Positions 2,397 through 29,630 are shown, numbered from the stretch's first letter. The stretch: DNA of 29,630 nt from Acidobacteriota bacterium (GCA_039931085.1 JBDTSO010000001.1:1-29630); one strand, 5' to 3'. The notes: generated by a model not told the origin, from the letters alone. Numbers and translations are program-made.

Positions 2397-2400
2397 AATT

Positions 2401-2458: not shown

Positions 2459-2489
2459 GTAAACAGGTTTGTATATCTAAAATCGAATT

Positions 2490-5671: not shown

Positions 5672-5730
5672 TTCTATAAGATAGCAAAATTCAGAGATTT
5701 TAAAAAATAATTTCCTAATTTCAAACTCGC

Positions 5731-7879: not shown

Positions 7880-7890
7880 AACCAAATATT

Positions 7891-8568
7891 ATGAGCGAAA
7901 GAAGTAATAAAAACGATTTGGTGGCATTTGCCGGACCTGTTTTCGATTTGATTTTGCGTCTGAAAGCCGGAATTGTCGCGCCTTCAAATGAACTGCGTCC
8001 GCAGATCGCGGCGATGTTGATGGATTTTGAAAAACGTGCTGAACGCTATCGTTTTAATCATAAAATTATTCAGGTTGCGAAATTCGCGCTCGCTTCGTTT
8101 GTTGACGAAACGGTTTTAACCAATAATTTTCCGTTGCGCGATGAATGGGAAAAATATCCTTTGCAGCTCGAATATTTCGGCGAACAACTTGCGGGCAATA
8201 AGTTTTTTGAAAAACTCAGCGCGATGATTAAACAAATCGAGCAGACGGCGGACGCGGTGGAAATTTATTACGTTTGTATGCTGCTCGGTTTTAAAGGCAG
8301 ATACGGCGTTTACGAACAGGAAAAACTGCTGGCGATTATGCAAAGCACGGCAAATGCGCTGGTTAAAGTCGGAAAAATAAAGCCCGTCGAACTTTCACCG
8401 AATTGGCTGGCGAACGATCAGCCGAAACCGCCTGAAGAGCGCGGAATGCCGGTTTGGGCAAAAATCAGCGCGTTTAGCGGTCTAGGTTTAGCCCTGATTA
8501 TTTATTTAACAATGTTTTTGATGACTGCGAACTTCTTGAAGGGTGCTATTGATAAATTACAACTTTAG
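7891..8568 (+). CDS. tssL: T6SS membrane subunit TssL (DotU family), no OmpA domain
   Basis: Motifs are FALASFVDETVL, WEKYPLQLEYFGEQLAGNKFF and YYVCMLLGFKGRY, with one C-terminal TM helix. I place the start at ATG 7891 because the TTG at 7864 lies inside the intergenic hairpin. Confidence 0.9.
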   Translation: MSERSNKNDLVAFAGPVFDLILRLKAGIVAPSNELRPQIAAMLMDFEKRAERYRFNHKIIQVAKFALASFVDETVLTNNFPLRDEWEKYPLQLEYFGEQLAGNKFFEKLSAMIKQIEQTADAVEIYYVCMLLGFKGRYGVYEQEKLLAIMQSTANALVKVGKIKPVELSPNWLANDQPKPPEERGMPVWAKISAFSGLGLALIIYLTMFLMTANFLKGAIDKLQL

Positions 8569-8615
8569 CGGTTTTGATCGGCAATTTACAGATAATGTGT
8601 AAATTGCCAGCCGCT
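8567..8615. repeat. Stem-loop between tssL and tssM
   Basis: A perfect 11-bp stem, GGCAATTTACA (8580-8590) with TGTAAATTGCC (8598-8608), closes the loop GATAATG. Outer arms are AGCGG and CCGCT. Confidence 0.7.
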
Positions 8616-8629
8616 CCATCATTGAAATT

Positions 8630-12298: not shown

Positions 12299-12350
12299 AT
12301 CGCTATGTCTATGAAACTGCAATTTACGATTCACGATTTACGACCAAAGA
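12294..12350. repeat. Heptamer-repeat stem-loop between tssM and tagJ
   Basis: Tandem TTTACGA-TTCACGA-TTTACGA spans 12323-12343. CGTGAATCG (12294-12302) is the perfect complement of CGATTCACG (12327-12335). Confidence 0.65.
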
Positions 12351-12353
12351 AAT

Positions 12354-13154
12354 ATGAATGAAGCAAAAACACAACTCGACGCGGGAAATTTGAATGGCGC
12401 GATGGAAGCAGCTCTGCAAATGGTCAAGGCAAATCCGACGGACGCAGCGGCGCGGACATTTCTTTTTGAACTTTCGTGTTTTGCGGGAAACTGGGATCGC
12501 GCCGAAAAACAACTGGAAGTTATCGGTCATCAAGATGTCAAGGCGATAATCGGCGCACAGATTTTTAAGCAGAATCTTGGCGCGGAACGAGATCGTCTGC
12601 GTCATTTTGCCGATGGTTTGATGCCCGAATGTTTGATGACACCGCCGAAATATGTCGAAGATTTGCTCGTCGCCAATAACCGTCTGCGCGAAGGCAAAAT
12701 CGCCGAAGCGCGGCAGGTTTTAGATAAAATAGAGGAAGAAAGACCGGCTTTTGCCTGTAAAATTAACGGTGAAGAATACAGCGATTTCCGCGATTACAAT
12801 GATTTTACCTGTTGCATTTTTGAAACAATCGTCAAGGATTCTTACGCCTGGATTCCGTTCGAACAAGTCAAAAAAGTTGAATTTGAAGAGCCGAAGAGTC
12901 TGCGCGATCTTTTTTGGGTGCAAACAAAAGTTGAAATGATAAACGGCACGACGGGCGAAATGTTTTTCCCCGCGCTTTACGTCAATTCGTGGAAAAGCGA
13001 TAACGATCAGGTGCGTCTGGGCAGAATGACCGATTGGCAGGATTTGGGCGACGATTTATACATCGGTGAAGGATTGCGCGTTTTTTGGTTTGACGGACAG
13101 GAAAAGGCAATTCTCGGACTGCGTGAAATTGAATTTTTTCATTCGGAAGAATAA
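12354..13154 (+). CDS. tagJ: T6SS accessory protein TagJ (ImpE/SciE family)
   Basis: The TPR-like N-terminus reads RTFLFELSCFAGNWDRAEKQL. The ImpE region reads FRDYNDF...YAWIPF...PKSLRDLFW...PALY...RLGRMTDW. Confidence 0.9.
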   Translation: MNEAKTQLDAGNLNGAMEAALQMVKANPTDAAARTFLFELSCFAGNWDRAEKQLEVIGHQDVKAIIGAQIFKQNLGAERDRLRHFADGLMPECLMTPPKYVEDLLVANNRLREGKIAEARQVLDKIEEERPAFACKINGEEYSDFRDYNDFTCCIFETIVKDSYAWIPFEQVKKVEFEEPKSLRDLFWVQTKVEMINGTTGEMFFPALYVNSWKSDNDQVRLGRMTDWQDLGDDLYIGEGLRVFWFDGQEKAILGLREIEFFHSEE

Positions 13155-13224
13155 ACTGAGCGAAATAATTTTTTCCGCCGACAAACGACTAAGCAAAATA
13201 AAATTAGCAGATTAAAAAACATTT

Positions 13225-14370
13225 ATGACCGTTGAACCATTACCCCCGGTAATTAACTTAGAAGTGATACTGTCGCCGATCTCGGAAGAAAATCCTGCGG
13301 GAGAAAGCACGCGCTACTCCGGGCTTTACGACGAAATCAACGAAGCGCGGCGGGCAGATGAAGATTTGGCATTAGGAGCGTGGAAAACCGACTTAAAAGT
13401 TGCCGATTTTCGCAAAGTGATTGAATTGGCGAGACCTGCGCTGGAAAAAGAAACCAAAGATTTACAAATTGCCGTGTGGTTTTCCGAAGCACTTGTTAAA
13501 GAATACGGATTTGTCGGTCTGCGCGACAGTTTGAAAATGGTCAGCGGTTTGCAGGACAAATTTTGGGAAACAATGTTTCCTGAAATTGACGACGGCGATC
13601 AGGAAGGTCGCGCCAACGCCATTTCGTGGATGGATACGCAAACCGCGTTTACCATTAAGGAAGCAACAATAACACAGGGCGACGGATACAGTTTTTTTGA
13701 TTTTGAAGATTCAAAACGCTTTGATATTCCCGACAATATCGAAACATTAGGTTCCGCCGATCAGGAAATTTATCAAAAGCTGAGAGCGCAAGCCGAAACT
13801 GAAAAAAAAGTTACGTCCGATTTGTGGCGCAAGGCGAAATCCGAATCGCGCCGTGCTTTTTACGAAGAACTTTCGCTCGTTATCGAAGAATGTTGGACGG
13901 AATACGCTGATCTTAACCGCGTCATCGAAGAAAAATTTGATCGCAATCAAGCTCCCGGACTCAGCAATTTAAAAAAATCGCTGGAAGACGTTCAAAATCA
14001 AGTTAAAAAACTTTTGGAAGAAAAACGCGCCGAAGAACCCGACGAGATTGAAGAAGGAATTGACGAAGAAAAAAGTGGTGGAAATGAAGCAAGTTCGACG
14101 GACAAAGGCGGAATTGTCGTTTCAAGCGTCGGCGGAACAATTCAAAATCGGAAAGACGCGCTTCGGAGGCTTTCCAATCTTGCCGAATTTTTCCAAAAAA
14201 CCGAGCCGCACAGTCCGGTTTCATATCTCGTGCAGCGTGCCGTCAAATGGGGAAATATGCCGCTTGAAACGTGGCTTCAGGATGTTATCAAAGACGAATC
14301 CATTCTCTCGCAACTGCGGCAAACACTCGGCTTTAACACAAACATAACGGATTCGCCGGAATCCCAATAG
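13225..14370 (+). CDS. tssA: T6SS TssA, short TssA1 type
   Basis: An ImpA_N domain (LSPISEENPAGES, KDLQIAVW) is paired with the C-terminal FFQKTEPHSPVSYLVQRAVKWG (EPxSP motif). Length is 381 aa. Confidence 0.92.
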   Translation: MTVEPLPPVINLEVILSPISEENPAGESTRYSGLYDEINEARRADEDLALGAWKTDLKVADFRKVIELARPALEKETKDLQIAVWFSEALVKEYGFVGLRDSLKMVSGLQDKFWETMFPEIDDGDQEGRANAISWMDTQTAFTIKEATITQGDGYSFFDFEDSKRFDIPDNIETLGSADQEIYQKLRAQAETEKKVTSDLWRKAKSESRRAFYEELSLVIEECWTEYADLNRVIEEKFDRNQAPGLSNLKKSLEDVQNQVKKLLEEKRAEEPDEIEEGIDEEKSGGNEASSTDKGGIVVSSVGGTIQNRKDALRRLSNLAEFFQKTEPHSPVSYLVQRAVKWGNMPLETWLQDVIKDESILSQLRQTLGFNTNITDSPESQ

Positions 14371-14424
14371 ATTGTCTGAAGTTTATTTATAAATTAAAAA
14401 CCAATAAAGATAAGGAGAAAAATT

Positions 14425-14943
14425 ATGCCAAAAAAAGAAAGTCTGCAACATAGAATTGATCGCGTGCGTCCGCCGCGTATTCAAATTACATACGATGTCG
14501 AAGTCGGCGGAGCAATCGAGTTAAAGGAATTGCCGTTTGTCGTCGGAGTAATGGGCGATTTTGTCGGCAAACCGGAAGAAATGCTGCCCGCGCTCAAAAA
14601 TCGCAAATTTGTTGAAGTTGACCGCGACAATTTTGATCAGGTATTGTCCGGTATGAAGCCGCGTCTGGCTTACAGCGTCGAGAATAAATTGCAAAACGAC
14701 GGCAGCAAGCTGGGTATCGAACTAAAATTCAACAGTATCGAAGATTTTGAGCCTGACAATGTTGTCCAGCAGGTTGAACCGCTTCGCAAACTCGTCGAAG
14801 CGCGTAAAAAACTTTCCGATTTGCGTTCAAAAATGGACGGTAACGAAAAGTTGGAAAATATTCTTAACGATATTATTTCAAATACCGATAAACAACAGCA
14901 ATTAAGCGATGCGCTCGGCATCGAAGGTGGAAAGGAGGAATAA
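14425..14943 (+). CDS. tssB: T6SS contractile sheath small subunit TssB
   Basis: It contains RVRPPRIQITYDVE...KELPFVVGVMGDF and FNSIEDFEPDNVVQQVEPL, with an AAGGAG RBS upstream. Confidence 0.96.
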   Translation: MPKKESLQHRIDRVRPPRIQITYDVEVGGAIELKELPFVVGVMGDFVGKPEEMLPALKNRKFVEVDRDNFDQVLSGMKPRLAYSVENKLQNDGSKLGIELKFNSIEDFEPDNVVQQVEPLRKLVEARKKLSDLRSKMDGNEKLENILNDIISNTDKQQQLSDALGIEGGKEE

Positions 14944-14946
14944 ATT

Positions 14947-16434
14947 ATGGCTGATAAAGCAAAACAAAAAGAAGTTGAAGTGCAGGAGCAGGAAGTTCAG
15001 GAAACCAGTCTGCTCGACCAGATTTTGACCGAGGGCAGAATGGCGCGGGACGAATTTCAAAAGGAAAGTGCCAAAGATATGATCGGCGAATTTGTTTCCC
15101 AGGTGATGTCGGGTCAATTAACAATGTCCAAAAATATGGATGTGGCAATTAATTCCCGAATTGCCGAGATTGATCGCCTGCTGACCGAGCAGATGAATGA
15201 AATTATGCACCACGCAGATTTCCAAAAGTTAGAAGGCTCGTGGCGCGGACTTCATCATCTGGTGATGAACAGTCTTACCAGCACACAGCTTAAAATCCGT
15301 GTGATGAGCGTCAACAAAAAAGATTTGTTGAAGGATTTTGAACGCGCGGTCGAATTCGACCAATCGGCATTATTCAAAAAAGTTTATGAAGATGAATACG
15401 GCACTTTCGGCGGCGCACCGTTCGGCGCGTTGATCGGCGATTACGAGTTCGGCAATCATCCGCAGGATATGGCTTTACTTGAAAAATTGTCGGGTGTCGC
15501 GGCGACGGCGCACGCGCCTTTTTTAAGCGCGGCATCACCGGAATTATTCGGTTGGGACGAATATTCGAATATGACTGAAGTACGCGATGTTTCAAAGATT
15601 TTTGACCGCACGGAATATATGAAGTGGCGCAGTTTCCGCGAATCGGAAGATTCGCGCTACGTCGGTTTGACGCTTCCGCGCGTTCTCGGACGAGAACCTT
15701 ACGGCGCGGCGACCAGACCGATTGAGACGTTTAATTTTGAAGAAGAAGTTACCGGCAAAGACCACTCCAAATATTTGTGGAGCAATGCCGCTTACGCTTT
15801 GGGCGTTCGTCTGACTGAGGCTTTTTCGATGCACGGCTGGTGCGTGGCGATTCGCGGCGTGGAAGGCGGCGGCTTGGTTGACGGACTACCGACGCATACG
15901 TTTGAAACCGACGAGGGCGAAATAGCGATGAAATGTCCGACGGAAGTTGCCATCACCGACCGCCGCGAAAAGGAATTTGCCGACAACGGATTTATTCCGC
16001 TCGTTCACTGTAAAAACACCGATTACGCGGCATTTTTCGCCACCCAATCGGCGAACAAAGCGAAGAAATACGATACTGATTCAGCCAATGCCAACGCGCG
16101 GCTTTCAACTCAGCTTCAATACATTTTCGCCGTTTCACGTTTCGCTCATTATTTGAAATCAATGATGCGAGACAAAATCGGCAGCTTTATGTCGCGTGAA
16201 GAGGCGGAAAAATTCTTAAATCGGTGGATAAGCAATTACATTCTGGATAGCGATACCGCGTCGCAAAATGCCAAAGCATCACGTCCGCTGCGCGAAGCTC
16301 GAATTGACGTTGCTGAAATTCCTGGAAAACCCGGCTGCTACAAAGCAGTTGCCTTTTTACGACCGCATTTCCAGCTTGACGAACTCTCGGTTTCATTAAG
16401 ATTAGTCGCGGAATTACCCGCTCAAGTTAAATAA
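14947..16434 (+). CDS. tssC: T6SS contractile sheath large subunit TssC
   Basis: It contains FQKLEGSWRGL, YEDEYGTFGGAPFG, CPTEVAITDRRE and FLRPHFQLDEL. Length is 495 aa. Confidence 0.97.
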   Translation: MADKAKQKEVEVQEQEVQETSLLDQILTEGRMARDEFQKESAKDMIGEFVSQVMSGQLTMSKNMDVAINSRIAEIDRLLTEQMNEIMHHADFQKLEGSWRGLHHLVMNSLTSTQLKIRVMSVNKKDLLKDFERAVEFDQSALFKKVYEDEYGTFGGAPFGALIGDYEFGNHPQDMALLEKLSGVAATAHAPFLSAASPELFGWDEYSNMTEVRDVSKIFDRTEYMKWRSFRESEDSRYVGLTLPRVLGREPYGAATRPIETFNFEEEVTGKDHSKYLWSNAAYALGVRLTEAFSMHGWCVAIRGVEGGGLVDGLPTHTFETDEGEIAMKCPTEVAITDRREKEFADNGFIPLVHCKNTDYAAFFATQSANKAKKYDTDSANANARLSTQLQYIFAVSRFAHYLKSMMRDKIGSFMSREEAEKFLNRWISNYILDSDTASQNAKASRPLREARIDVAEIPGKPGCYKAVAFLRPHFQLDELSVSLRLVAELPAQVK

Positions 16435-16438
16435 ATAA

Positions 16439-16485
16439 AACAGCAAATTATTTTTAGCCATTTATGCAAAAGATAATTTGCTGTT
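16439..16485. repeat. Long stem-loop immediately after the tssC stop
   Basis: AACAGCAAATTAT (16439-16451) and ATAATTTGCTGTT (16473-16485) form a perfect 13-bp stem that extends inward by four more pairs, one of them U-G. No U tract follows. Confidence 0.7.
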
Positions 16486-16525
16486 CGTCAGTTATTTATG
16501 GGATCAAAACTTAATAAACTTTAAG

Positions 16526-16557
16526 TAGCCCAGATAATAAACTCGGCTGTTTTTTTT
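16526..16557 (+). terminator. Weak terminator-like hairpin upstream of hcp
   Basis: TAGCCCAG-ATAATAAA-CTCGGCTG forms an imperfect stem and is followed by T8. Confidence 0.4.
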
Positions 16558-16608
16558 AACAATCGGGTTGGTCAGATAATAAAAATGGTTTAAGGAGAAT
16601 AAAAGAAT

Positions 16609-17097
16609 ATGGCTAACATCTTTATGAAATTGGATTCTTTACAAGGAGAATCTAAACAACAAGACTTTGATGGTTGGATCGAGGTTGAACACGTAAATTA
16701 CAGTGTCCATTCTCCGTCATCAGTCGGAACCGGAACGGGAAGCGGTGTAGGAAAAGCAGAACCGTCACCTATTACTGTCGTCGCCTATCAGGGAGCGCAC
16801 ACGCCTGAGATATCAAAGCGTCAATACGAGGGAATGCATTGGAAGGATGTAACTATCACTTTTTTGAAGCAGACAGGCGCGACATCATCAAAAAACGATA
16901 AGTATTTAGAAATAAAATTGAAGGAAGTATTTTTGGTAGGATTTCAGCCCCAATTAGGAGGAAATGAAAAGCCGCTCGAAACATTTACTTTTACTTATAA
17001 TGATATTGAAATCGAGTATTTCAAACAAAATGATGACGGATCAAATGTTTCGGTAGGTAAGACCGGATATAACACGAAGACAAATGTCGCTCGCTAG
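16609..17097 (+). CDS. hcp: T6SS tube protein Hcp (TssD)
   Basis: It contains IFMKLDSLQGESK...DGWIEV, YLEIKLKEV and PLETFTFTYNDIEIEY. It is 162 aa, has a TAAGGAG RBS and follows tssC. Confidence 0.92.
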   Translation: MANIFMKLDSLQGESKQQDFDGWIEVEHVNYSVHSPSSVGTGTGSGVGKAEPSPITVVAYQGAHTPEISKRQYEGMHWKDVTITFLKQTGATSSKNDKYLEIKLKEVFLVGFQPQLGGNEKPLETFTFTYNDIEIEYFKQNDDGSNVSVGKTGYNTKTNVAR

Positions 17098-17161
17098 GAT
17101 GTTTGAAACTTTTTGTAAAACTTCTCTCTGATTTGAGAAATCTCTTGATTTGAAGAATTTC

Positions 17162-17216
17162 TACGGATTCTGATAGGTTGTATGAAGTTTTCAATCTATT
17201 AGAATCTGTATTTTCT
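17162..17216 (+). terminator. Long hairpin after hcp (terminator or mRNA-stabilising element)
   Basis: TACGGATTCTGATAGGTTG (17162-17180) pairs with CAATCTATTAGAATCTGTA (17192-17210) as a 19-bp stem. All three non-Watson-Crick positions are G-U on the + strand RNA. TTTTCT follows. Confidence 0.65.
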
Positions 17217-17354
17217 GCGACAAAATTTTACTAATCTTTTTAGTTAGAATTCTAACAAAATTTGAAAATCAACAGATAATTCATACAACTGAGCCGTTTT
17301 CAGAATTATTAGTAAAAAGTTACCTTGAGAAAAGGATAAAACAGGCGGAATTTT

Positions 17355-17840
17355 ATGTTTGGCTTACCAGCGTGGGCATTTCGTCCTTTGGCATCAACGT
17401 GGACATTTACAACTTCAGAATCCGGTGAATTTGACGCACTAATCTTTGCCGCCGGTAAAGGATCATTCTATGTAACAGACAGCAGAGATCCAGATGAAAT
17501 CGTTCATGAAATATTATATGTTGGAGCCGGAGTCACCAAAAGTAAGGGTCCTATTCCATTTGGGGTTGGCGGTGCTTTTTCAACACCCGATATGCCAAGC
17601 TCCGGTGTCGGACCAATTATGATGGGATCATCAAAATCTTCTCTGGAATTAAGTGATTTCGAGGGATCGGGAATCATCTTTTCGGCAGCCGCCGGTATCG
17701 GTAAAGGAAAAGATTATGCAATTATTCTTTTCGGGTTACCGCCTTTTACTGTTGCCGGAGGACGAATGGAAGGCATTCAGTATATGGCTCCCGGATTTGG
17801 CTTTACCGCGATGCCTTGCTATTTTACAGTTGATCCCTGA
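17355..17840 (+). CDS. Hypothetical Gly-rich protein (orf161) inside the T6SS core; candidate Hcp-associated effector
   Basis: This 161-aa ORF has an AGGCGG RBS 6 nt before the ATG and an in-frame stop just upstream. It fills the hcp-tssE gap. I do not recognise the family. Confidence 0.75.
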   Translation: MFGLPAWAFRPLASTWTFTTSESGEFDALIFAAGKGSFYVTDSRDPDEIVHEILYVGAGVTKSKGPIPFGVGGAFSTPDMPSSGVGPIMMGSSKSSLELSDFEGSGIIFSAAAGIGKGKDYAIILFGLPPFTVAGGRMEGIQYMAPGFGFTAMPCYFTVDP

Positions 17841-17906
17841 GCAATCTATTAATTTTAACAAACTTTCTAGTTTGTTTATCTCAGAAACCGTTTGTAAACT
17901 CGGAGA

Positions 17907-18395
17907 ATGAAATTGCGGGATAATGAAATCAGGATAACTCCGTCAATCGTTGATCGTCTGCTTGATTTTGAGCCGAAAGTTTCTACTGAAGCACCGAAAT
18001 CGCGCTCGAGAAGTTTGAGCGAATTGAAGCAAGCGGTCAGGCGCGATCTGGAATGGCTTTTGAACACCCGTCATTCTCCGATTGAAATTCCCGAAGGTTT
18101 GGAAGAAATCAACAAATCTATGGCAATTTACGGATTACCGGATTTTACGGGTTTGAGTTCAAAAAATCACGACGACCGAAAAAATTTGATTCACAGCATC
18201 GAAACGGCTCTGCGAATTTTTGAACCGCGCTTTACGAACTTAAAGGTAATACTTGAAGAAATTGACAGTGTTGAAAGAGGCGTTAAATTTCGGATTCAGG
18301 CAACTTTAAAAGTTGAGCCGACACCCGAACCCGTCGTTTTTGATACGTTTCTGCAAGTAGGAAGCGGCGGATTTGAAGTCAAGGAAACCAGTTAA
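17907..18395 (+). CDS. tssE: T6SS baseplate subunit TssE (gp25-like)
   Basis: It contains PSIVDRLLD, RRDLEWLLNTR, YGLPD and FEPRF. Confidence 0.94.
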   Translation: MKLRDNEIRITPSIVDRLLDFEPKVSTEAPKSRSRSLSELKQAVRRDLEWLLNTRHSPIEIPEGLEEINKSMAIYGLPDFTGLSSKNHDDRKNLIHSIETALRIFEPRFTNLKVILEEIDSVERGVKFRIQATLKVEPTPEPVVFDTFLQVGSGGFEVKETS

Positions 18396-18409
18396 AATTT
18401 TCATTTTCA

Positions 18410-20299
18410 ATGCGCGACGAACTTTTAGATTATTACGAACGTGAACTGATTTTTATTCGCCGAATGGGTGCGGATTTTGCACGAAAATATCCGAAGGTCG
18501 CCGCGCGTCTGCTGATTGACGAAGAAAAGATCGAAGACCCGCACGTCGAGCGAATGATTGAGGCTTTCGCTTTTTTAGCCGGACGAATCAATCTGAAACT
18601 TGATGATGAACTGCCGGAAATTACCGAGGCATTTCTGAATGTTATCTATCCTCATTATCTATCGCCGATTCCTTCAATGGCGATTTCGCAGTTTCTCCTC
18701 GGCTCTCCGAAAAATAAAATTACCGCTATTCAGAAAATCGAACGCGGAGCAAAACTTTACTCGCGCCCGATTGACGGTTCGCCTTGTAATTTTAAGACTT
18801 GTTATGACACTCAACTTGTTCCGGTAGAAGTTCTCTACGCTAATTTGGAATCCGTCGCCCCGCCGAACGCGCAGGGAAAACTCACCGATTGCCAGATTCG
18901 CATCAGCCTGAAATGCTTCGGCGACACGATGTTTTCCGAACTGAAAGATGCTGAAACGAGCGAACCGTTGAAGTTTTTGCGCTTTTATCTGAACGGCGAC
19001 CCGCAACTTGTTTTTCCGCTTTACGAATTGATTTTTAATCATTCATCAGCCGTCGAAATTCAGCCGAAAGAAACGCCGATTACCAATAAAACTTCACTCT
19101 CAATGAGTAATATTCAGCTTAAATTACCTGATCCGGTAGTGTTGCCGAAGGAGTCAATCCGCGAAGTCGGTTATTCGATTGACGAGGGAATGCTGCCGTA
19201 TTCAAAAAATTCTTTCGTCGGTTATCGTTTGTTGACGGAATATTTTACATTTCCGCATAAATTTTTGTTTTTTGATATATATGGTCTTGACGAGGCGGCG
19301 CGAAAGAAATTTGGTAATCATTTTGATATTGTAATTCATCTGAAAAATGTTACTCCGCCGCGCGCGCCCATCACATCTGATTCGTTTTTACTCGGTTGTT
19401 CGCCGATTATTAATCTGTTTTCGCTGATTGCCGATCCGATTTATCTTTCGCAGCAAAAATACGAATATCAGATAATTGCCGATATTCATCGTCAGTCTGC
19501 AACGGAAATTTATTCGACCGACGAAGTTTTTACAACTGACCCGCGCACCGGAATTACACGCGAATTTTCTCCGTTTTATTCGTTGAAACACGCTCACGGC
19601 AACCAGAAAGAAAAGGTTTTCTGGTATGCCAATCGCCGCGCGTCGCAAAGACCGAATGACGATGGAACAGAAGTTTTTCTAACTCTGGTGGACAAAAATT
19701 TTAATCCGCGCGTTCCGGCTGAAGAAGTCATTACCGTGAGAAATACCTGCACAAATCGTGATTTACCGGCACGGCTTCCCTTCGGCAGCAAAGAAGGTGA
19801 TTTTGAAATTGAAGGCACGGCTTTGATTTCACGAATTCGCTGTTTGACCAAACCGACGGAAACGATTCGCCCGCCGCAACGCAGGGCTTTGCAGTGGCGT
19901 TTGATTTCACATTTAAATTTAAATTTTTTGTCGCTTGTCGAAAATCAGAATGGCGTTCCCGAAGCCTTGCAAGAGATATTGCAGCTTTATAATTTCAATG
20001 ATTCGGCAGTCAATCACAAACAAATTCTGGGAATCACGGGCATTGAAAGCAGAAAAATCGTGCGGCAAATCGGTAATCGCACCGGCGCGGGATTTGTGCG
20101 CGGAGTTGAAACGACGCTCGAATTTGACGAAGATCAATTCGTCGGCAGCGGATTGTTTGTTTTCGCCAGCGTTCTCGAAAGATTTTTGGGCATTTATACT
20201 TCGCTAAATTCTTTTAACCAATTAGTTATCAAGACAAAGCAGCGCGAAGAAATCGTCAAAAGGTGGATGCCGCGAGCAGGCGATCAGGCGTTATTGTAG
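18410..20299 (+). CDS. tssF: T6SS baseplate subunit TssF
   Basis: It contains LLDYYEREL, EDPHVERMIEAFAFL, GYRLLTEYFTFPHKFLF and the C-terminal LERFLGIYTSLNSF. Length is 629 aa. Confidence 0.96.
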   Translation: MRDELLDYYERELIFIRRMGADFARKYPKVAARLLIDEEKIEDPHVERMIEAFAFLAGRINLKLDDELPEITEAFLNVIYPHYLSPIPSMAISQFLLGSPKNKITAIQKIERGAKLYSRPIDGSPCNFKTCYDTQLVPVEVLYANLESVAPPNAQGKLTDCQIRISLKCFGDTMFSELKDAETSEPLKFLRFYLNGDPQLVFPLYELIFNHSSAVEIQPKETPITNKTSLSMSNIQLKLPDPVVLPKESIREVGYSIDEGMLPYSKNSFVGYRLLTEYFTFPHKFLFFDIYGLDEAARKKFGNHFDIVIHLKNVTPPRAPITSDSFLLGCSPIINLFSLIADPIYLSQQKYEYQIIADIHRQSATEIYSTDEVFTTDPRTGITREFSPFYSLKHAHGNQKEKVFWYANRRASQRPNDDGTEVFLTLVDKNFNPRVPAEEVITVRNTCTNRDLPARLPFGSKEGDFEIEGTALISRIRCLTKPTETIRPPQRRALQWRLISHLNLNFLSLVENQNGVPEALQEILQLYNFNDSAVNHKQILGITGIESRKIVRQIGNRTGAGFVRGVETTLEFDEDQFVGSGLFVFASVLERFLGIYTSLNSFNQLVIKTKQREEIVKRWMPRAGDQALL

Positions 20300-20452
20300 A
20301 TTTCAAATTTATTTCGAGCAGGTCGATATATGTTTTGAAGAACATTTAAAATGCGGAAACACGCTGCGCTCTAAGTGTGTTTTTTTCGCATTATGTTCGA
20401 AACTTCTTCTCATCTGCTCAAAGTAAATAAAAAACTTTAATCTTAAAATTCG

Positions 20453-21460
20453 ATGGAAAAACCTTTAGATCAAGAACTTCTCGACGAGCCGTACAAGTTT
20501 GAATTTTTTCAAGCCGTGCGACTGCTTGAAAGAATGTTTCCCGAAAAAACGGCTGTTGCCCGAAGTGTAACGCCGGAGAAAGAGGTCGTTCGCTTTCGCT
20601 CCAATGCTTCTTTGAGATTTCCGCCGGCTGAAATTTTTGACATAAAGCAGACTGTTGATGATGTATCCGACGAACAAAAACTTGAAATGTTCGTCAGTTT
20701 TATGGGAATGCTCGGAATTGTCGGAGTTTTGCCCGTGCATTATACCGAACTGGTTGTCGAACGCGCCCGATACGGCGACACGGCTCTCTGGGCATTTTTG
20801 GATATTTTCACGCACCGCACCGTTTCGATGTTTTTCCGCGCGTGGGAAAAATATCGTTTTCCCGTTCAATATGAACGCGGCAATGACGATTTTACGGCAT
20901 ATCTGTTTGATATTGTCGGTCTTGGAACTCAAGGCTTGCGCGGTCGCTTAAATTTGGATGATGAAAGTCTTCTGCCCTATTCAGGTTTAATCGTTCAAAA
21001 ACCTCATTCAAAATTCGCGCTTGAGCGATTATTGTCGGATTATTTCGAGGTTAGTGCAAAAATTCATCAGTTTAGCGGTCAATGGTTAACGCTTGATGAA
21101 GAAAGTATCACACGGCTCGGCACGGCAAACAGTGTGCTTGGGGCGACGACCATCATCGGAACGCGCGTTTGGGATTACCAGTCAAAGTTTCGTATCGTTT
21201 TCGGTCCGTTAAAGTTTGTAGAATATCAAGCCTTTCTGCCGAACGGCTCGTCATACAAACCGATGCTTTCGATTGCGCGTTTTATGTCCGGCGACGAGTT
21301 TGATTTTGAAGCGCAGTTAATATTAACGGCGAAAGAAGTTCCGAGTACAATTTTAACGACGCGGGCGATACGCTGTCCGATGCTCGGATGGACATCTTTT
21401 TTAAAAACCAGACCGTTCAAGCGCGACGATGAACAATTGGTATTACAGACAGAAAATTAA
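20453..21460 (+). CDS. tssG: T6SS baseplate subunit TssG
   Basis: It contains EPYKFEFFQAVRLLE, FMGMLG..GVLP.HYTE, FLDIFTHR and FYRAWEKYR-like FFRAWEKYR. Confidence 0.95.
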   Translation: MEKPLDQELLDEPYKFEFFQAVRLLERMFPEKTAVARSVTPEKEVVRFRSNASLRFPPAEIFDIKQTVDDVSDEQKLEMFVSFMGMLGIVGVLPVHYTELVVERARYGDTALWAFLDIFTHRTVSMFFRAWEKYRFPVQYERGNDDFTAYLFDIVGLGTQGLRGRLNLDDESLLPYSGLIVQKPHSKFALERLLSDYFEVSAKIHQFSGQWLTLDEESITRLGTANSVLGATTIIGTRVWDYQSKFRIVFGPLKFVEYQAFLPNGSSYKPMLSIARFMSGDEFDFEAQLILTAKEVPSTILTTRAIRCPMLGWTSFLKTRPFKRDDEQLVLQTEN

Positions 21461-21505
21461 ACAAAACCAAATAAAGATATTGTAATTAAATAATCGGAGG
21501 AAAAT

Positions 21506-24319
21506 ATGGATGTTAATCTGAAATCACTTATCGGAAGGCTGAATGACACTTGCCGGTCGGCACTCGAAGGCGCAGCCGGATTGTGTCTGTCGCGGACTAA
21601 TTACGATGTTGAGATAGAGCATATACTGGCAAAACTGCTCGAAGCAGAAGATACTGATATTTCGCGGATTTTGCGGCATTTTGAAATGAATCCCGACCGA
21701 ATGACAAAAGATGTTTCGGCGGCACTTGAACGCTTAAAAAGCGGCAATTCGCGCACGCCGGGTTTGAGCGAAAGAATTCCGCACTGGATTCAGGACGCTT
21801 GGCTTTTGGCATCCGTCGAATACGGCTCGGCGCGTGTTCGCTCCGGTCATTTAATTTTGGCTCTGATGTCAAATGAAAATTTTGCGAGAATCGCCCGCGA
21901 TATTTCCCGCGAATTTAATGAATTGACCAAACACCACGACACCTTAAAACGCGAATTTACGGATATTGTGTCAGGTTCGGCTGAAGAACGCGAAACGGGC
22001 AGTTTGTCGGAAACAGCGGCGGCGACATCGGACGGTGCGCCGGTAGCGAGCGGCGTTCCCGGAAAAACAAAAGCTCTCGACCAGTACACGGAAGATTTAA
22101 CCGCTAAAGCTCGCGCCGGAAAAATTGATCCGATTCTCGGGCGCGATTTTGAAATTCGGCAGGTAATTGATATTTTAACGCGCCGCCGCCAGAACAATCC
22201 GATTTTGACGGGCGAAGCGGGCGTGGGCAAAACCGCCGTCGTTGAAGGTTTCGCGCTGAAAATTGTCGAAGGCGACGTTCCCGAACCTCTGAGAAATGTT
22301 ATCCTCCGAACTCTCGATTTAGGACTGCTGCAAGCCGGCGCAGGAATCAAAGGTGAATTTGAAAATCGTTTAAAATCCGTAATTGATGAAGTAAAAGCCT
22401 CGCCACAGCCCATTATTCTTTTTATAGACGAAGCGCACACGATGATCGGCGCGGGCGGTCAAGCCGGTCAAAACGACGCGGCTAATCTTCTCAAACCCGC
22501 GCTGGCACGCGGCGAATTGCGGACGATTGCCGCGACTACCTGGGCAGAATATAAGAAATACTTTGAAAAAGACGCGGCTCTCGCGCGTCGCTTTCAGGTT
22601 GTAAAAGTCGAAGAACCGGATGAAGAAAAGGCGATTGCGATGATGCGCGGTTTGACCGAAATAATGGAACATCATCACAATGTTCGCATCCTCGACGAAG
22701 CGGTCGTCGAGTGTGTTAAATTATCACACCGTTATATTACGGGTCGCCAGCTTCCCGATAAATCAGTCAGCGTTTTGGATACAGCCTGCGCTAAAGTTGC
22801 CATCGGACAAGGCGCAACGCCGGGCGCAGTCGAAGATTCGACAAAACACATTCATCAACTCGACAGAGAAATCAGTTCGCTGGAACGCGAACTTGTAACC
22901 GGCGCGGAACACGACGAGCGACTGGCGGAATTAAAAGAACAACGCGATAAAGAACAGAAAAGACTTGATAAATATAACACGCAGTGGACAAAAGAAAAGG
23001 AATTGATTGACCGCATCCGCGAAATCCGCTCGACACTCGAAGAAAATGCCGCGCAGAGCAAAAGTACCCAGCCTTCCTCAAACGGAAACGGCGCGGCGGC
23101 GGCGGCAACCGCAGGCTCTGGAGAATCCGCTTCCGCCAAGGCGGACGAAAACACCGCCAAAACTGCGGCAACCGAAACAAATGTTGCTGAAGACTCCGCC
23201 GCAAATCCCGCGCCGACACAAATAAATGTCGAAGAATTAAAAACCGAGCTTTCACGATTAAATGCGGAATTAAAAGAAGTTCAGGGTGAAACGCCTTTGA
23301 TGCAGCCGGTTGTCAACGGTCAGACAGTTGCCGAAGTTATCTCAGGTTGGACAGGAATTCCGGTTGGCAAAATGGTCTCGGATGAAATCAATGCGGTTTT
23401 GAATCTTGAGCAAACTTTAGCCGAAAGAGTTGTCGGTCAGGACAGCGCGCTGTTGGCGATTGCCGAGCGGATTAAAACTTCACGCGCCGGTTTGACCGAC
23501 CCGAAAAGACCAATCGGCGTGTTTCTTCTGGTCGGAACGAGCGGTGTCGGTAAAACGGAAACCGCACTTGCTCTAGCCGATACGCTTTACGGCGGCGAAC
23601 GCAATCTCGTTTCCATCAATATGAGCGAATATCAGGAAGCGCACACGGTTTCCAGCTTAAAAGGTTCGCCGCCGGGCTATGTCGGTTACGGTGAAGGCGG
23701 TGTTTTAACTGAAGCCGTCAGAAGAAAACCTTATTCGGTCGTCCTGCTCGACGAAGTTGAAAAAGCGCACCCCGACGTGATGGAACTTTTCTATCAGGTT
23801 TTCGACAAAGGGCAATTGGAAGACGGTGAAGGACGCGAAATTGACTTTAAAAACTGCGTTATTTTGCTCACATCAAACGTCGGTACGGACACGATTATGA
23901 AATTGTGCGCTGATCCCGATACGAAACCCGAGCCGGAAGGCTTGATCGAAGCGTTGCGTCCCGAACTCGTCAAAGCCTTCAAACCCGCGCTTTTAGGTCG
24001 TATGACTATCGCTCCGTATTATCCGATCAGCGATGATATTCTTCGCCTGATTGTAAAATTACAGCTTTCAAAAATTGCCCGACGTATTTTTGAAAACCAC
24101 AAAGCGCAATTCACCTACGACGATGCGGTTATAGAAGCCGTAGCCAAACGATGTACCGATGTTGATTCGGGTGCGCGCAACGTTCATAACATTCTGAACG
24201 GAACGCTTCTGCCGGAAATGAGCGGCGAGGTTTTATCGAGAATGGCAAGCGGCGAAGGTATCAAAAAAGTCCACGTTTCTGTCGGTGAAAATGAAAATTT
24301 TGCATATTCGATTAGCTAA
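21506..24319 (+). CDS. tssH: T6SS AAA+ ATPase ClpV (TssH)
   Basis: It contains [29 protein letters not shown] and [11 protein letters not shown], plus the ClpV-type N-terminus ([23 protein letters not shown]). Length is 937 aa. Confidence 0.96.
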
Positions 24320-24340
24320 ATATTTTAAGGGATTATAGAA

Positions 24341-27055
24341 ATGGAAAATTTGACACAAAAAGATCGGGTTATTTCAATCAGATCACCGTTAGGTGAAGAT
24401 GTCTTGCTTCTCAACAAAGTTCGTGCCGAAGAAAAAATTTCCGAACTTTTTACAATTGATGTCGAACTTGTATATCACGAGCGAGAAGACGATAAGTTCG
24501 ATATCAAAATGGTCAATGACAGAGACATTGTCGGTCAAACCGTCAGTATGAAAATCAATCAGGACGACGAAGGCGTGCGAATTATGACCGGTTTGATCAA
24601 TTCATTCAACATTGGAGGTCGCACCCGTCAGTTCACTTACTATTATGCGACGATTGTTCCGCATATTTGGCTGCTGACACATCATTTTCAAAGCAGAATT
24701 TTTCAGCAAAAAACAGTAAAGCAAATTTTGAGAGAAATCTTTGACGGCTTTCAAGTCAAGTTTGAACTGAAAAACGACTATAAACCGCGCAATTATTGTG
24801 TCCAATATCAGGAAACCGACTTTGATTTTGCTTCGCGGCTGATGGAAGAAGAAGGCATTTACTATTATTTTGAACACACGGCTGAAATGGACATACTGAC
24901 GCTGCGCGACGACTTTACAAAGCCTGAAGACTGTCCGCGGAAATGTGTAATCGGTTTTTTAAATGAAAACCTGACGGAGAGCGTGTTTGAAAGCGCGGTG
25001 AAAAAGCTGCAAGTTGATTATAAAATGCAAAGCGGTAAGGTAACACTGTGGGATTATAATTTTGAGCTTCAGCCGAACAAGAAATTAGATGTTGAAAAAA
25101 CAAGCGTATTTGATGTTGGGGAAAATAAAAAACTTGAAGTCTATGAATATCCGGGCGGATACGCCAGAAAATATGACGGAATTGATCCCGGCGGCGGCGA
25201 GCGTTCCGGTGATCTAAACAATATTTTTACGGATAACAAGCGAACGATTAACAACAGAATGTTTGCTCTCGATTCGCAGTATAAAATATTTTCGGGAATA
25301 TCCGATTGCAGCACTCTCACGGTCGGTCATCGTTTTGAACTCAAAAACCATCCGAATTCGGAATACAATAAAAAATATATTATTTTATCGGTCAAACACG
25401 AAGTTGATCAAACTCCAGCGTATGCCGCCGAAGAATATGTTCCGAAGGCATATCGTAATGAGTTTACCTGCATCGAACACGGCGCGGGGAAACCGGAATA
25501 TCGTCCACCGCAGAAAACCCGCAAACCGATTATGTACGGCTGTCAAACGGCGATTGTCGTCGGAGACGGGGGCGAGGAAATTTTTACCGATAAATATGGG
25601 CGCGTCAAAGTGCAGTTTCACTGGGACAGAGAAGGTAAATATAATCCGGACAGTTCGTGCTGGCTGCGCGTCGGAACGAGCATTGCGGGCAACAAATGGG
25701 GAACGATGTTTATTCCGCGCATCGGTCAGGAAGTAATCGTTGATTTTATCGGCGGCAACCCGGATCAACCAATCATCGTCGGTTCGGTCTATAATCCGCA
25801 GACGATGCCGCATTATGACTTGCCGAAATATAAAACTTTGAGTTATTACAAATCGCGTACCACACCCGACGACGGCAAAGGTTTTAACGAATGGCGGTTT
25901 GAAGATAAAAAAGGCAAGGAACAGGTTTTTATTCATTCGCAAAAACGAATGGACGTGCGTGTCCGACAATCGCTTTATGAAACCTGCGGCGGCAACCGCC
26001 ACGAAGTCATCGGCGTTCGCTCAAGCACTTATTCGGGAGAAAATTATCCGGGCGGAAATCTCGCCGTAACGGTTGGCGGAAACTATGATTTGCACGTTCA
26101 GGATTCGATGTATATCGGCATTGACAAGAAACGGTTCGATTATGTCGAAGGCGATGTTACCGAGCAGTTTAAAGGCAAGCGGACGACAAAAGTCAGCAGT
26201 TCCAGCGAATTAAACGCGCAGAAGATAGAACTTCAGGCTTTGACGGAAATAACATTTAAGGTCGGATCAAGTTTTATTATGCTCGATTTGACGGGAATTA
26301 CGATTTCTGGTCCTTTGGTCAAAATAAATTCAGGCGGCGCGGCACCGGATACTGCTCCGTTTCAGATGAAGGGACCGGCGGATGCCGAAGCCGCCGATAC
26401 GGGCGAACCCGGATATTTAGACCGTCCTCATTACGGCGGCGGTCACGGGCGCAAAACTTGGACGGTCAACGGATACAGCGGTCCTGAAATTACGTATGAT
26501 CCGGCAACCGGCGATTACAAAGTAGGCAAAAATATCACAGTCAAAGGCGATGATAAATTTAAAAAGCAAGCTCTTAACGACATTGCCGAAATCAATGACG
26601 CGCCGACGGGCAAGCAATTGATTAACAACATCAATAACGGAAATCACACGGTAACCGTTCAGGAATCGCCGACTGATCCGGTAACGGGCAAGAAATCTAC
26701 TGGTCAAACCATTCCATCCGATGAAGACGACGCGAAAACGCCGGGAGCCGGGAGCGACACAACGATTATTTACAATCCCAACGGAACAAAAGCGAAAGAT
26801 CAGAACGGAAAACCGATTGACATTCCGGGCAAAGAAGTTCTCGGACACGAAATGATTCACGCCGATCACGTTTCGCAGGGAACGAGTTTGATTGACTCGC
26901 CCGATCCGAAAGACCCGAACGGCAATCAGGAAGAATCCAGAACAATCGGCATCAACGATCATGAGAACGAGCCGATTTCGGAAAATAATCTGCTCAAAGA
27001 TTGGGGCGCGGATTATCGGCGCAAAGACCACGACGGAGGTTTCGTGCGAAAATAA
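24341..27055 (+). CDS. vgrG: Evolved VgrG (TssI) with a C-terminal M91/NleD-like zinc metallopeptidase domain
   Basis: The VgrG core shows YCVQYQETDFDFASRLMEEEGIYYYFEH, TDKYGRVKVQFHWDR and PRIGQEVIVDF, and ends at VKINSGG near aa 666. A ~240-aa extension follows, with HEMIH (aa 836-840), EE (864-865), TIG, ISEN and a terminal R..H. Confidence 0.93.
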   Translation: MENLTQKDRVISIRSPLGEDVLLLNKVRAEEKISELFTIDVELVYHEREDDKFDIKMVNDRDIVGQTVSMKINQDDEGVRIMTGLINSFNIGGRTRQFTYYYATIVPHIWLLTHHFQSRIFQQKTVKQILREIFDGFQVKFELKNDYKPRNYCVQYQETDFDFASRLMEEEGIYYYFEHTAEMDILTLRDDFTKPEDCPRKCVIGFLNENLTESVFESAVKKLQVDYKMQSGKVTLWDYNFELQPNKKLDVEKTSVFDVGENKKLEVYEYPGGYARKYDGIDPGGGERSGDLNNIFTDNKRTINNRMFALDSQYKIFSGISDCSTLTVGHRFELKNHPNSEYNKKYIILSVKHEVDQTPAYAAEEYVPKAYRNEFTCIEHGAGKPEYRPPQKTRKPIMYGCQTAIVVGDGGEEIFTDKYGRVKVQFHWDREGKYNPDSSCWLRVGTSIAGNKWGTMFIPRIGQEVIVDFIGGNPDQPIIVGSVYNPQTMPHYDLPKYKTLSYYKSRTTPDDGKGFNEWRFEDKKGKEQVFIHSQKRMDVRVRQSLYETCGGNRHEVIGVRSSTYSGENYPGGNLAVTVGGNYDLHVQDSMYIGIDKKRFDYVEGDVTEQFKGKRTTKVSSSSELNAQKIELQALTEITFKVGSSFIMLDLTGITISGPLVKINSGGAAPDTAPFQMKGPADAEAADTGEPGYLDRPHYGGGHGRKTWTVNGYSGPEITYDPATGDYKVGKNITVKGDDKFKKQALNDIAEINDAPTGKQLINNINNGNHTVTVQESPTDPVTGKKSTGQTIPSDEDDAKTPGAGSDTTIIYNPNGTKAKDQNGKPIDIPGKEVLGHEMIHADHVSQGTSLIDSPDPKDPNGNQEESRTIGINDHENEPISENNLLKDWGADYRRKDHDGGFVRK

Positions 27056-27063
27056 GAGGGAGA

Positions 27064-27753
27064 ATGGCGATGGTATATTTCGCTAAGTTCACGTTTATTT
27101 TTATCATATTGCTGACTCCGTTTTGTGATCGGCAAAAGATAGAACGAGGTATAAAGATGGAAACGGAAGAATCCTTAAATAAATCAGTCAAACTCAGCGG
27201 TAAAGTTGAGCGCAAAGATGGCGTATTGTCAATCAAATACGAGTTGACGAATCAAACGCCGAAAAAAATTTACGTTTACGACTTAATTCCGATTAGAGGA
27301 GAAGACGGAGAAGAAATTAAACACGATCTGGCTTATAGATGTTACGAAGAGCCGGATACGCTTCGGGTGGTTCGGGCAGTTCTGCCGTTGCCGACCGACC
27401 GCGAAGTTTTTATGAAGGAGATACCATACGTTCGCCCCGTCGAGCCGAACAAATCCGTTTCGGGGCAAATCGTTTTACCCGCGCCCGTTTTAGAGTACAA
27501 TCCGTATTATCCGCCGATGAATCTCGAAGATCAAAAAGAAGTTTCGATCAATAAAATTAAATTAATAATCGGCTGGACGGAAGTTCGCAGCGGAATGGAT
27601 ATTACTGATACGAACGTCGGAGGTGAAGAAGTTCAGATGATTCGCGGCGCGTGGGAAGCACCGCTTTATCGTTTGGCGGAAACGACTTTTTCCGCCGATG
27701 CTAAAATGAAAGTCAGAAATGAGCCTTTTGACCGACGACTGCCTGAACATTAA
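27064..27753 (+). CDS. Putative immunity protein, possibly a lipoprotein (orf229)
   Basis: It starts 8 nt after the vgrG stop, behind a GAGGGAG RBS. The N-terminus has Lys, a hydrophobic stretch and Cys21 (AKFTFIFIILLTPF-C). The body is beta-rich (LSIKYELTNQTPKKIYV). An alternative start at ATG 27157 has its own GAGGT RBS. Confidence 0.7.
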   Translation: MAMVYFAKFTFIFIILLTPFCDRQKIERGIKMETEESLNKSVKLSGKVERKDGVLSIKYELTNQTPKKIYVYDLIPIRGEDGEEIKHDLAYRCYEEPDTLRVVRAVLPLPTDREVFMKEIPYVRPVEPNKSVSGQIVLPAPVLEYNPYYPPMNLEDQKEVSINKIKLIIGWTEVRSGMDITDTNVGGEEVQMIRGAWEAPLYRLAETTFSADAKMKVRNEPFDRRLPEH

Positions 27754-27798
27754 ATTTATTTCAAGAAAAACTCAAAGTTTGAGAATCAAGGAGAAATT

Positions 27799-28293
27799 AT
27801 GCCGCCAGCCGCCAGAATAACCGATCCAGTTGCACATCCGCTGCCGCCTGTTCTAACCGGCGGACCGACTGCCGTAACCGTTATCATCGGATTCCTTCCG
27901 GCGTGGCGCGGAATCGGTCCCGCCATTGCCGCCGGTCTCAGCAACGGAAAAATTGAATCTGAAAAAAATATAAAAAAAGCTGAAGCCGAAACCAAACTGG
28001 CTACCGGAACGCCGGGTCAGAGTGCTGCCGAACTCCACGAAAAAAAAGTGAAATTTGAGGAAGCCGCGAAAATGGCGGCAACGATTTTAGCGGCGGCGGC
28101 AATGACAGATATTCATGTTTGTGCAACATTTCCGCCGCTTCCTCCGCACGGTCCTGGAGTAGACATCAAGCCGTCTACAACTGTTTTGGTCGCGGGAATG
28201 CCGGCATCACGGCAAGGCGACGAGATTTTAGAAGCCATCGGACCGCCGAATTTTATTTCGATGGGCTGCCCGACGGTTTTAATCGGTGGTTAA
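27799..28293 (+). CDS. PAAR spike-tip protein with an internal helical insertion
   Basis: The three PAAR repeats are PAARITD, PAWRG and PASRQGD. Likely Zn ligands are His13, His106/Cys108, His117 and Cys157. It ends in GCPTVLIGG and has an AAGGAG RBS. Confidence 0.9.
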   Translation: MPPAARITDPVAHPLPPVLTGGPTAVTVIIGFLPAWRGIGPAIAAGLSNGKIESEKNIKKAEAETKLATGTPGQSAAELHEKKVKFEEAAKMAATILAAAAMTDIHVCATFPPLPPHGPGVDIKPSTTVLVAGMPASRQGDEILEAIGPPNFISMGCPTVLIGG

Positions 28294-28298
28294 GTTTG

Positions 28299-28339
28299 AA
28301 AGGATAAGAAACAATAAAACCATTTCTTATCCTTTTTTT
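28299..28339. terminator. Bidirectional intrinsic terminator between PAAR and fumC
   Basis: AAAGGATAAGAAA (28299-28311) and TTTCTTATCCTTT (28323-28335) form a perfect 13-bp stem, followed by a T tract, between convergent genes. Confidence 0.8.
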
Positions 28340-28348
28340 CGTTTACCA

Positions 28349-29630
28349 TTACGGGTGCGTCATTTCTTCGGGTTTGACTAACTCATCAAATTTATCACCG
28401 TCCAAAATTCCGAGTTCAATTGCTGACTGTTTCAAACTCGTTCCTTTTTTATGCGCGTTTTTCGCAATTTTTGAAGCGTTATCATAACCGATATGCTGAT
28501 TCAACGCCGTCACCAACATTAATGAATCATTGAGATATTCATCAATTTGCGGGCGATTGAGTTCGATGCCGTTGATACAAAACTCGACAAATCCGTAACA
28601 CGCATCGTGAAGCAATCGAACCGAATGCAAAAAATTGTGAATCATCACGGGTTTGAAAACATTCAGTTCAAAATTTCCCTGCGAACCTGCAAAACCGATT
28701 GCCGCATCATTTCCTAAAACTTGCGCGGCGACCATCGTCATCGCTTCCGATTGCGTCGGATTTACTTTTCCCGGCATAATCGAACTTCCCGGTTCATTCT
28801 CCGGCAGAATCAATTCGCCGATGCCGCAGCGCGGACCCGACGCAAGCCAACGAATGTCGTTAGCAATTTTCATCAGCGAAGCCGCGAGAGTTTTCAACGC
28901 GCCGGACGCAAAAACGATTTCGTCGTGCGCCGATAAAGCCGCGAATTTGTTCGGATGCGAGCGAAACGGCAAATCCGTCAATTCGGCGATTTGTTTGGCG
29001 GCGCGTTCCGCAAATTCGGGATGCGAATTCAAACCCGTGCCGACCGCCGTGCCGCCGATTGCCAAATCGTAAAGTCCTTCCAAAGTCATTTTCAATCTAT
29101 CAATATCGCGCTCAATAAGGCTCGCCCAGCCGCCGAATTCCTGTCCGACGGTCAACGGTGTCGCGTCCTGCAAATGCGTTCTGCCGATTTTTACCACATC
29201 GGCAAATTCCCGTGCTTTCGCGTCAATCGCGTCGCGGACTTTCTGCACCTGCGGAATCAAAGCGTTCATCGTTTCAGCGGCGGCAATATACATCGCCGTC
29301 GGAAAAGTGTCATTTGAACTCTGCGACATATTCACGTCATCGTTCGGGTGAATCGGCTTTTTAGAACCGAGTTCGCCGCCTGCGATTTCGATAGCGCGAT
29401 TGGAAATCACTTCGTTCGCGTTCATATTCGTCTGTGTGCCGCTTCCCGTCTGCCAAACGCGCAGCGGAAAATGCGCGTCCAAATCGCCGTCAATCACTTC
29501 ATTCGCCGCCCGCACGATCAAATCCGTTTTATCGAGCGTCATTTTGTCCGATTTCAACTGATGATTGGCAATCGCGGCGGCTTTTTTCAAAATGCCAAGT
29601 GCGCGAATCATCTCACGCGGCATCACATCA
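28349..29630 (-). CDS. fumC: Class II fumarate hydratase, 5'-truncated by the window edge
   Basis: It contains [47 protein letters not shown] and the signature [15 protein letters not shown]. The frame stays open to the window end (…DVMPREMIR). Confidence 0.96.

Follow-up and report, generated by a model that had tools for sequence, protein, structure and literature searches.

The M91 peptidase domain of a VgrG spike protein and its candidate immunity partner form an exchangeable cassette in an acidobacterial type VI secretion cluster

This analysis deals with the gene at positions 24341-27055 of a 29,630-nucleotide stretch of DNA from an acidobacterium (GCA_039931085.1 JBDTSO010000001.1:1-29630), to which we refer in full as the window. 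The host is a soil acidobacterium that a housekeeping GH57 branching enzyme places near Pyrinomonadaceae, and its assembly is a metagenome-assembled genome (MAG), 68% complete. The gene lies in a complete type VI secretion system (T6SS) cluster and encodes a VgrG spike protein that runs on, in the same frame, into a domain of peptidase family M91. We consider it probable (roughly 0.7) that this domain is an antibacterial zinc endopeptidase that is carried on the spike, acts in the periplasm of the target cell, and is neutralized by an exported partner protein encoded directly downstream, with toxin domain and partner gene forming an exchangeable cassette. An initial annotation of the window had described the second part of the gene (26340-27055) as a covalently loaded T6SS toxin of the M91 type. 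Its observation is confirmed here, and its interpretation is supported by the in-frame position of the M91 domain behind a complete VgrG.

Translation of 24341-27055 gives a single unbroken frame of 904 amino acids (aa). This open reading frame (ORF), directly 3' of clpV, holds PF05954, PF04717, PF22178, and PF14891, and all the motifs singled out beforehand (VKINSGG, HExxH at 26846-26860, QEESRTIG, ISENNLL, and RKDH) are found in it at the positions given for them. Its parts are listed below, where pLDDT stands for the predicted local distance difference test and BoNT for botulinum neurotoxin.

24341-26338, plus strand: VgrG core (aa 1-666) with a gp27-like hub, an OB fold, and a gp5-like beta-helix (PF05954 at E 4.5e-73, PF04717, PF22178; translation)
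26339-26479, plus strand: linker of low model confidence (aa 667-713; pLDDT 51-56 over model residues 1-40; near-invariant Gly columns)
26480-27052, plus strand: predicted Peptidase_M91 (HopH1/NleD-like) zinc-protease toxin domain (aa 714-904), the start of the fold being placed by model confidence
26846-26860, plus strand: HEMIH (aa 836-840), with H836 and H840 as predicted zinc ligands and E837 as the predicted catalytic residue; invariant in 49 relatives and, in alignments, falling on the HExxH of HopH1 and on that of BoNT-like light chains
26930-26935, plus strand: E864-E865 (in QEESRTIG), with E865 as the predicted third zinc ligand; E865 invariant, E864 nearly invariant, and EE invariant in the HopH1 alignment
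27020-27031, plus strand: RKDH (R894-x-x-H897), the clade's counterpart of the RxxY active-site motif; R and H invariant

Since its full gp27/gp5 core shares a single frame with a toxin domain, the protein is a specialized (or "evolved") VgrG effector. The core closes with VKINSGG (aa 660-666, last nucleotide 26338) and is followed by a linker rich in Pro, Ala, and Asp. The interval annotated before, 26340-27055, covers both this linker and the toxin domain, the folded part of which starts at about aa 714 (nucleotide 26480). Within the linker we find the motif DAEAADTGEPGYLDRP (aa 681-696, nucleotides 26381-26428), with a run of Gly after it. The same motif stands in VgrG proteins of congeners that bear other toxin domains (e.g., that of the congener G008, discussed below), and may serve as a junction element ahead of the toxin.

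Near the C-terminus, ISENNLL contains E881 and N882, the triplet S-E-N occupying aa 880-882 and N882 being nearly invariant. An alignment of the C-termini of 49 VgrG-fused relatives shows no variation at H836, E837, H840, E865, R894, and H897, and because of this invariance the domain is predicted to be an active, zinc-binding protease. One may also picture it as a remnant without activity, or as an extension that serves the spike only structurally, but this is hardly conceivable with an intact ORF, a very confident model, catalytic and metal-binding positions that are all invariant, and a cassette (including its immunity gene) that is maintained and exchanged between species.

The M91 membership that had been read from the motif pattern is borne out by Pfam, by BLAST, and by the fold. 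PF14891 matches aa 731-884 with 77.1 bits (E 2.7e-21) when the whole protein is searched, with 80.4 bits for the C-terminus alone, and with 80.6 bits in the genome scan, where the curated gathering cut-off is 25 bits; judged as a sequence match, this is far beyond chance. In tblastn searches of plasmid records, 70-80% of the domain aligned at 26-30% identity (E down to 8e-9) with genes for "type III effector HopH1" from Ralstonia and the Pseudomonas syringae group and for an "M91 family zinc metallopeptidase" from Azospirillum. Herein, the motifs HEMIHAxH (HExxHxxH), EE, and (S/T)EN are in register. The published definition of the Tox-HopH1 motif includes EE and [DE]N (PMC3482391), and the domain has both.

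An AlphaFold2 model, based on 49 homologs, reaches a pLDDT of ~97 over aa 714-904. Its top Foldseek matches in the PDB are botulinum-type light chains only (E down to 5e-7), and a Foldseek search of the Swiss-Prot models returned clostridial toxins, NleD not being among them. A sequence-profile search of the PDB gave weak matches to BoNT-like light chains with the HExxH motifs aligned, and a PDB search with the single domain sequence returned nothing relevant. The domain is a member of M91 (NleD/HopH1, Tox-HopH1) with a minimal botulinum-light-chain-like zincin core. As the kinship of M91 and M27 is already in print (PMC6367388; bioRxiv 10.1101/220806), the fold confirms the membership and adds no novelty. 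A trait of the clade is the motif RxxH, where classic M91 and BoNT enzymes carry RxxY: the residue at the position of H897 is Tyr in HopH1 and in the Azospirillum M91 protein, and His in all sequences aligned from the 150 best representatives.

At the level of sequence, the strongest new evidence for an effector-immunity pair is the replacement of toxin domain and downstream gene in a congener (G027). The elements concerned are the following.

26518-27787, plus strand: exchangeable toxin-immunity cassette, i.e., toxin domain and partner (blastn against G027; junction sequences)
27070-27753, plus strand: candidate immunity protein of 227 aa, with a lipoprotein-like leader ending in Cys followed by an all-beta sandwich (conserved position; leader; model)

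Against G027, blastn gives 95% identity over 21265-26517 (clpV, then vgrG as far as approximately aa 724-726) and 93% identity over 27788-29630, from the ribosome-binding site of the PAAR gene onward, without any alignment over 26518-27787. The breakpoint of the recombination lies after YDPATG, ~30 aa past DAEAADTGEPGYLDRP, and the two VgrG proteins are nearly identical up to this junction and clearly diverged beyond it. In the replaced interval, the congener has a second M91 variant (PF14891, 61 bits) and a partner that shares 28% identity with the one in the window and whose leader again ends in Cys. In a third congener (G008), the VgrG of 918 aa (L019, G008:C4:195131-198558, minus strand 530-3286) carries DAEAADTGEPGYLDRP at the corresponding place; after the motif come a DUF6782-like HExxH domain (26.4 bits, slightly below the cut-off of 27), another lipoprotein-like ORF, and a PAAR gene. 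From its sequence, this domain looks like a second, uncharacterized type of VgrG-borne metallopeptidase at the same locus. Since toxin and partner are replaced in G027 between flanks of 93-95% identity, and since G008 holds another HExxH cassette, we regard the locus as a polymorphic-toxin site. Toxin domain and partner behave as one unit and, therefore, as expected of an effector and its immunity protein. The initial annotation had taken the downstream gene as a sign of an antibacterial toxin; in this joint replacement, as well as in its conserved position, the gene behaves like a cognate immunity gene.

The start codon of the partner, an ATG, lies 8 nucleotides past a GAGGGAG Shine-Dalgarno site that itself abuts the stop codon of vgrG. 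The order of VgrG-M91 gene, ORF of ~200-240 aa, and gene for a 164-aa PAAR protein is also present in G027 and in two distant relatives, L001 (a JGI metagenome contig) and L002 (a Chloracidobacterium MAG). Homologs of the partner fall into 12 clusters, and 11 of the 12 full-length sequences have a hydrophobic N-terminal leader ending in Cys; leader and Cys are kept across homologs that are 28-72% identical. The partner in L002 has been called too short: a TTG start behind TAGGAGGT (a strong Shine-Dalgarno) gives it the leader MK...LTLAC and a tether rich in Gly and Pro. A Pfam scan of the partner protein returned no family match, and a scan of genome contigs with the partner alignment returned only the known Chloracidobacterium locus. 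The model of the partner is an all-beta sandwich (pLDDT 79), for which the PDB holds nothing at E <= 1e-3. Among the AlphaFold clusters, it resembles uncharacterized proteins at template modeling (TM) scores of 0.6-0.7 and, more weakly, the folds of BsuPI proteinase inhibitor and of gingipain propeptide. That the partner may be a protease inhibitor is, on this likeness of models, a hint and not evidence.

Critically speaking, several points weigh against a periplasmic antibacterial protease held in check by an exported partner. The lipobox of the partner (T-P-F-C) is non-canonical with its Phe at -1, which is why we call the partner exported and probably lipid-anchored, and not a proven lipoprotein. 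One of its homologs has no Cys in the leader, and its likeness to protease inhibitors is weak, with a query-side TM score below 0.5. Moreover, nearly all homologs share an internal Met (Met30, ATG at 27157) where the mature domain begins; in the window this Met has a GAGGT site of its own, so a leaderless form is possible. Finally, the targets of the classic M91 members NleD and HopH1 are eukaryotic proteins, and Tox-HopH1 of Salmonella is placed among the anti-eukaryotic effectors in one survey (PMC12994826).

The internal Met would fit a toxin that acts in the target cell's cytoplasm and is neutralized by a leaderless partner translated from 27157. In the window, the GAGGT site is at good spacing from this ATG, and the gene calls of several relatives start at the internal Met. 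A Shine-Dalgarno site in front of it is, however, present only in the window and absent in L001 and L002, whereas the upstream starts in the window and in L002 have a strong one. A leader and a Cys kept across such divergent homologs would be unexpected if they were not translated, and the M91 domain of Salmonella is harmless in the cytoplasm (PMC13556075). All in all, cytoplasmic action is improbable.

We likewise give little credence to an anti-eukaryotic effector that, like NleD/HopH1, would enter soil protists, fungi, or plant cells and cleave a signaling protein there, the downstream gene then not being an immunity gene. In addition to the survey just cited, this idea can draw on the fact that the named M91 members are type III secretion system (T3SS) effectors of animal and plant pathogens (PMC9846239). 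Yet a tightly linked partner that diverges and swaps together with the toxin domain is the self-protection signature of an antibacterial toxin, this partner carries an export leader, and the sole T6SS M91 domain that has been tested is antibacterial (PMC13556075). Trans-kingdom activity on top of the antibacterial one is possible.

In short, we propose the following course for the antibacterial, periplasm-acting protease. The VgrG trimer would carry three M91 protease domains, with the adjacent PAAR protein as its cap, and contraction of the T6SS sheath would drive this spike into a neighboring gram-negative cell. In that cell, the most likely place for the protease to act is the periplasm, on an envelope substrate. 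In the producer and its sibling cells, the exported, probably lipid-anchored beta-sandwich partner would bind and block the incoming protease. Toxin domain and candidate immunity gene are exchanged as a single cassette, which makes the locus polymorphic. We favor the periplasm because of the leader of the partner, the fusion of the same M91 clade to a GH108 muramidase, and the precedent from Salmonella Dublin, where the M91 domain of an Rhs protein stops the growth of Escherichia coli only when sent to the periplasm and a membrane-anchored partner rescues the cells (PMC13556075, 2026).

Within the periplasm, the substrate might also be the peptides of peptidoglycan instead of folded proteins. 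T6SS toxins of the periplasm are often cell-wall enzymes, and the GH108 fusion would go along with such a role. On the other hand, this fusion was seen in one examined protein, the Pfam scan here came without a peptidoglycan-binding module, and the characterized enzymes of the fold (BoNT light chains, NleD) all cleave proteins, which leaves a peptidoglycan hydrolase quite unlikely.

The fusion of VgrG with M91 is by no means limited to the window. A word-indexed search found VgrG with PF14891 in 48 clusters at 90% identity, mainly metagenomic; their few named sources are Chloracidobacterium, Pyrinomonadaceae, and Xanthomonadaceae. The full profile search, which covered 1.84 billion representatives, yielded 2924 matches at E <= 1e-3 and 798 at E <= 1e-10. 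Nine long matches were scanned, and eight of these are VgrG-M91 and one is RTX-M91. Ten shorter ones were scanned as well and include PAAR-M91 (7/10), GH108-M91 (1/10), and a VgrG fragment (1/10). Judging from these domain matches, the M91 toxin module is common to several delivery formats. In the host genus, the M91 domain is patchy, being present in 4 of 33 other species genomes, with a VgrG-sized frame in one of those four. One genome of this genus search (G033) is unpublished, and nothing claimed here depends on it.

In proteins of the M91 clade, among them P0095 (418 aa), P0112 (1603 aa), and P0053, the domain is joined to a GH108 muramidase, to RTX repeats, and, very often, to an N-terminal PAAR.

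In light of this abundance, the initial annotation went too far in presenting a candidate new toxin. A link of Tox-HopH1 to the T6SS dates from 2012 (Zhang et al., PMC3482391), and Tox-HopH1 ranks among the commonest T6SS effectors of Salmonella; a T6SS-carried member was tested in 2026 (PMC13556075). Bioinformatic descriptions exist for Tpe2 of Pseudomonas aeruginosa and for the Rhs-M91 proteins of Salmonella and of Shiga toxin-producing E. coli. Our literature search found the VgrG-M91 fusion in no paper, although the fusion is numerous in metagenomes and abundant in sequence databases. The VgrG-M91 toxin is not new in kind, and it reveals no new mechanism.

Nonetheless, the pair is of interest for several reasons. 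VgrG-M91 and its immunity gene are a clean natural pair, the limits of their cassette are fixed to within a few bases, and the pair is handy for finding the bacterial substrate of T6SS M91 proteases. The partner represents an immunity family so far without annotation. T6SS effectors of Acidobacteriota have hardly been studied, and the locus adds to the evidence that soil bacteria, Acidobacteriota included, make wide use of a small botulinum-light-chain-like zincin core in their warfare. More tentatively, the RxxH subgroup of M91 might be a large and mostly unstudied family of periplasmic antibacterial proteases that ride on VgrG, PAAR, Rhs, and further carriers, are each matched by an inhibitor from an unannotated family of beta-sandwich lipoproteins, and cleave a conserved target in the bacterial envelope. 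If this were true, the NleD/HopH1 effectors, and perhaps the core of the botulinum-type light chains, would descend from interbacterial weapons.

The remaining genes of the secretion cluster are given here for context.

6469-24319, plus strand: T6SS core, comprising tssK, L, M, tagJ, tssA, B, C, hcp, an unknown ORF, tssE, F, G, and clpV (Pfam scans)
27799-28293, plus strand: PAAR tip protein of 164 aa, 3' of the cassette (PF05488; same 164-aa gene in L001, L002, and G027)

The complete T6SS-i cluster spans 6469-28293, with vgrG, the ORF of 227 aa, and the PAAR gene following clpV. Its last large gene is vgrG, and after the cluster comes a fumarase gene on the opposite strand. The Pfam match of the PAAR protein is split and weak (28 bits in two stretches), which fits an Ala-rich insertion of ~65 aa; in the relatives, the gene is located at 5218-5712 (L001) and 7485-7979 (L002). 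The cluster begins with tssK, and no tssJ shows up among its Pfam-annotated genes (region 6469-12298). Between hcp and tssE, at 17355-17840, there is an ORF of 161 aa for which a Pfam scan at E <= 0.1 gave no match.

Among the known systems, we rejected the clostridial neurotoxin light chains (M27) as an identity for the domain, which has ~190 aa versus ~420 aa, RxxH and not RxxY, and a VgrG as carrier. Identity is 17-19%, and superposition is limited to the core. In size, the domain falls short of half a light chain; it comes without a translocation or receptor domain and belongs to a family in which, according to the papers cited, the light-chain-specific substrate-binding insertions are lacking. 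Nothing suggests SNARE cleavage or activity on animals. With NleD/HopH1 (MEROPS M91), the domain shares PF14891, the 26-30% identity to HopH1 genes, and the aligned HExxHxxH, EE, and (S/T)EN motifs. These proteins differ in that they work inside eukaryotic cells as stand-alone T3SS effectors, have no immunity gene, and carry RxxY instead of RxxH. Tpe2 of P. aeruginosa (PA14_33970; PMC9846239) is also a predicted M91 effector encoded in a T6SS cluster, but it is a stand-alone cargo protein, and no immunity gene has been identified for it.

VgrG2b of P. aeruginosa, which the initial annotation had drawn upon as a parallel, is a functional analog and not a homolog. Together with PA0261 (Tpe1-Tpi1, PMC6899460), it offers the same combination of a VgrG with an HExxH zinc protease and an adjacent, periplasm-exposed immunity protein, and it acts in the periplasm. 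Its C-terminal domain is thermolysin-like and belongs to the Tpe1 family (PMC6899460). PDB sequence searches with the single sequence and with the profile (E up to 10) did not recover it, and neither Foldseek nor VIA-align listed its fold among their 50 best structural matches. An M91 domain has been attributed to VgrG2b in print (PMC8867033), but this finds no support in our searches or in the paper on the VgrG2b structure (PMC6899460).

A further close system is the PAAR-Rhs-Peptidase_M91 protein SED_RS06335 of Salmonella Dublin SPI-19 with its immunity protein SED_RS06340 (PMC8867033, PMC13556075). Both systems have a T6SS M91 domain with HExxH, a predicted botulinum-light-chain-like fold, and an envelope-facing partner encoded downstream, and SED_RS06335 itself is an antibacterial toxin whose effect is confined to the periplasm. 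The hosts differ, an enteric pathogen versus a soil acidobacterium, as do the carriers, an Rhs cage with PAAR there and a VgrG here. The partners differ as well: SED_RS06340 has 110 aa and one transmembrane helix, whereas the partner in the window is a lipoprotein-like beta-sandwich of ~200 aa.

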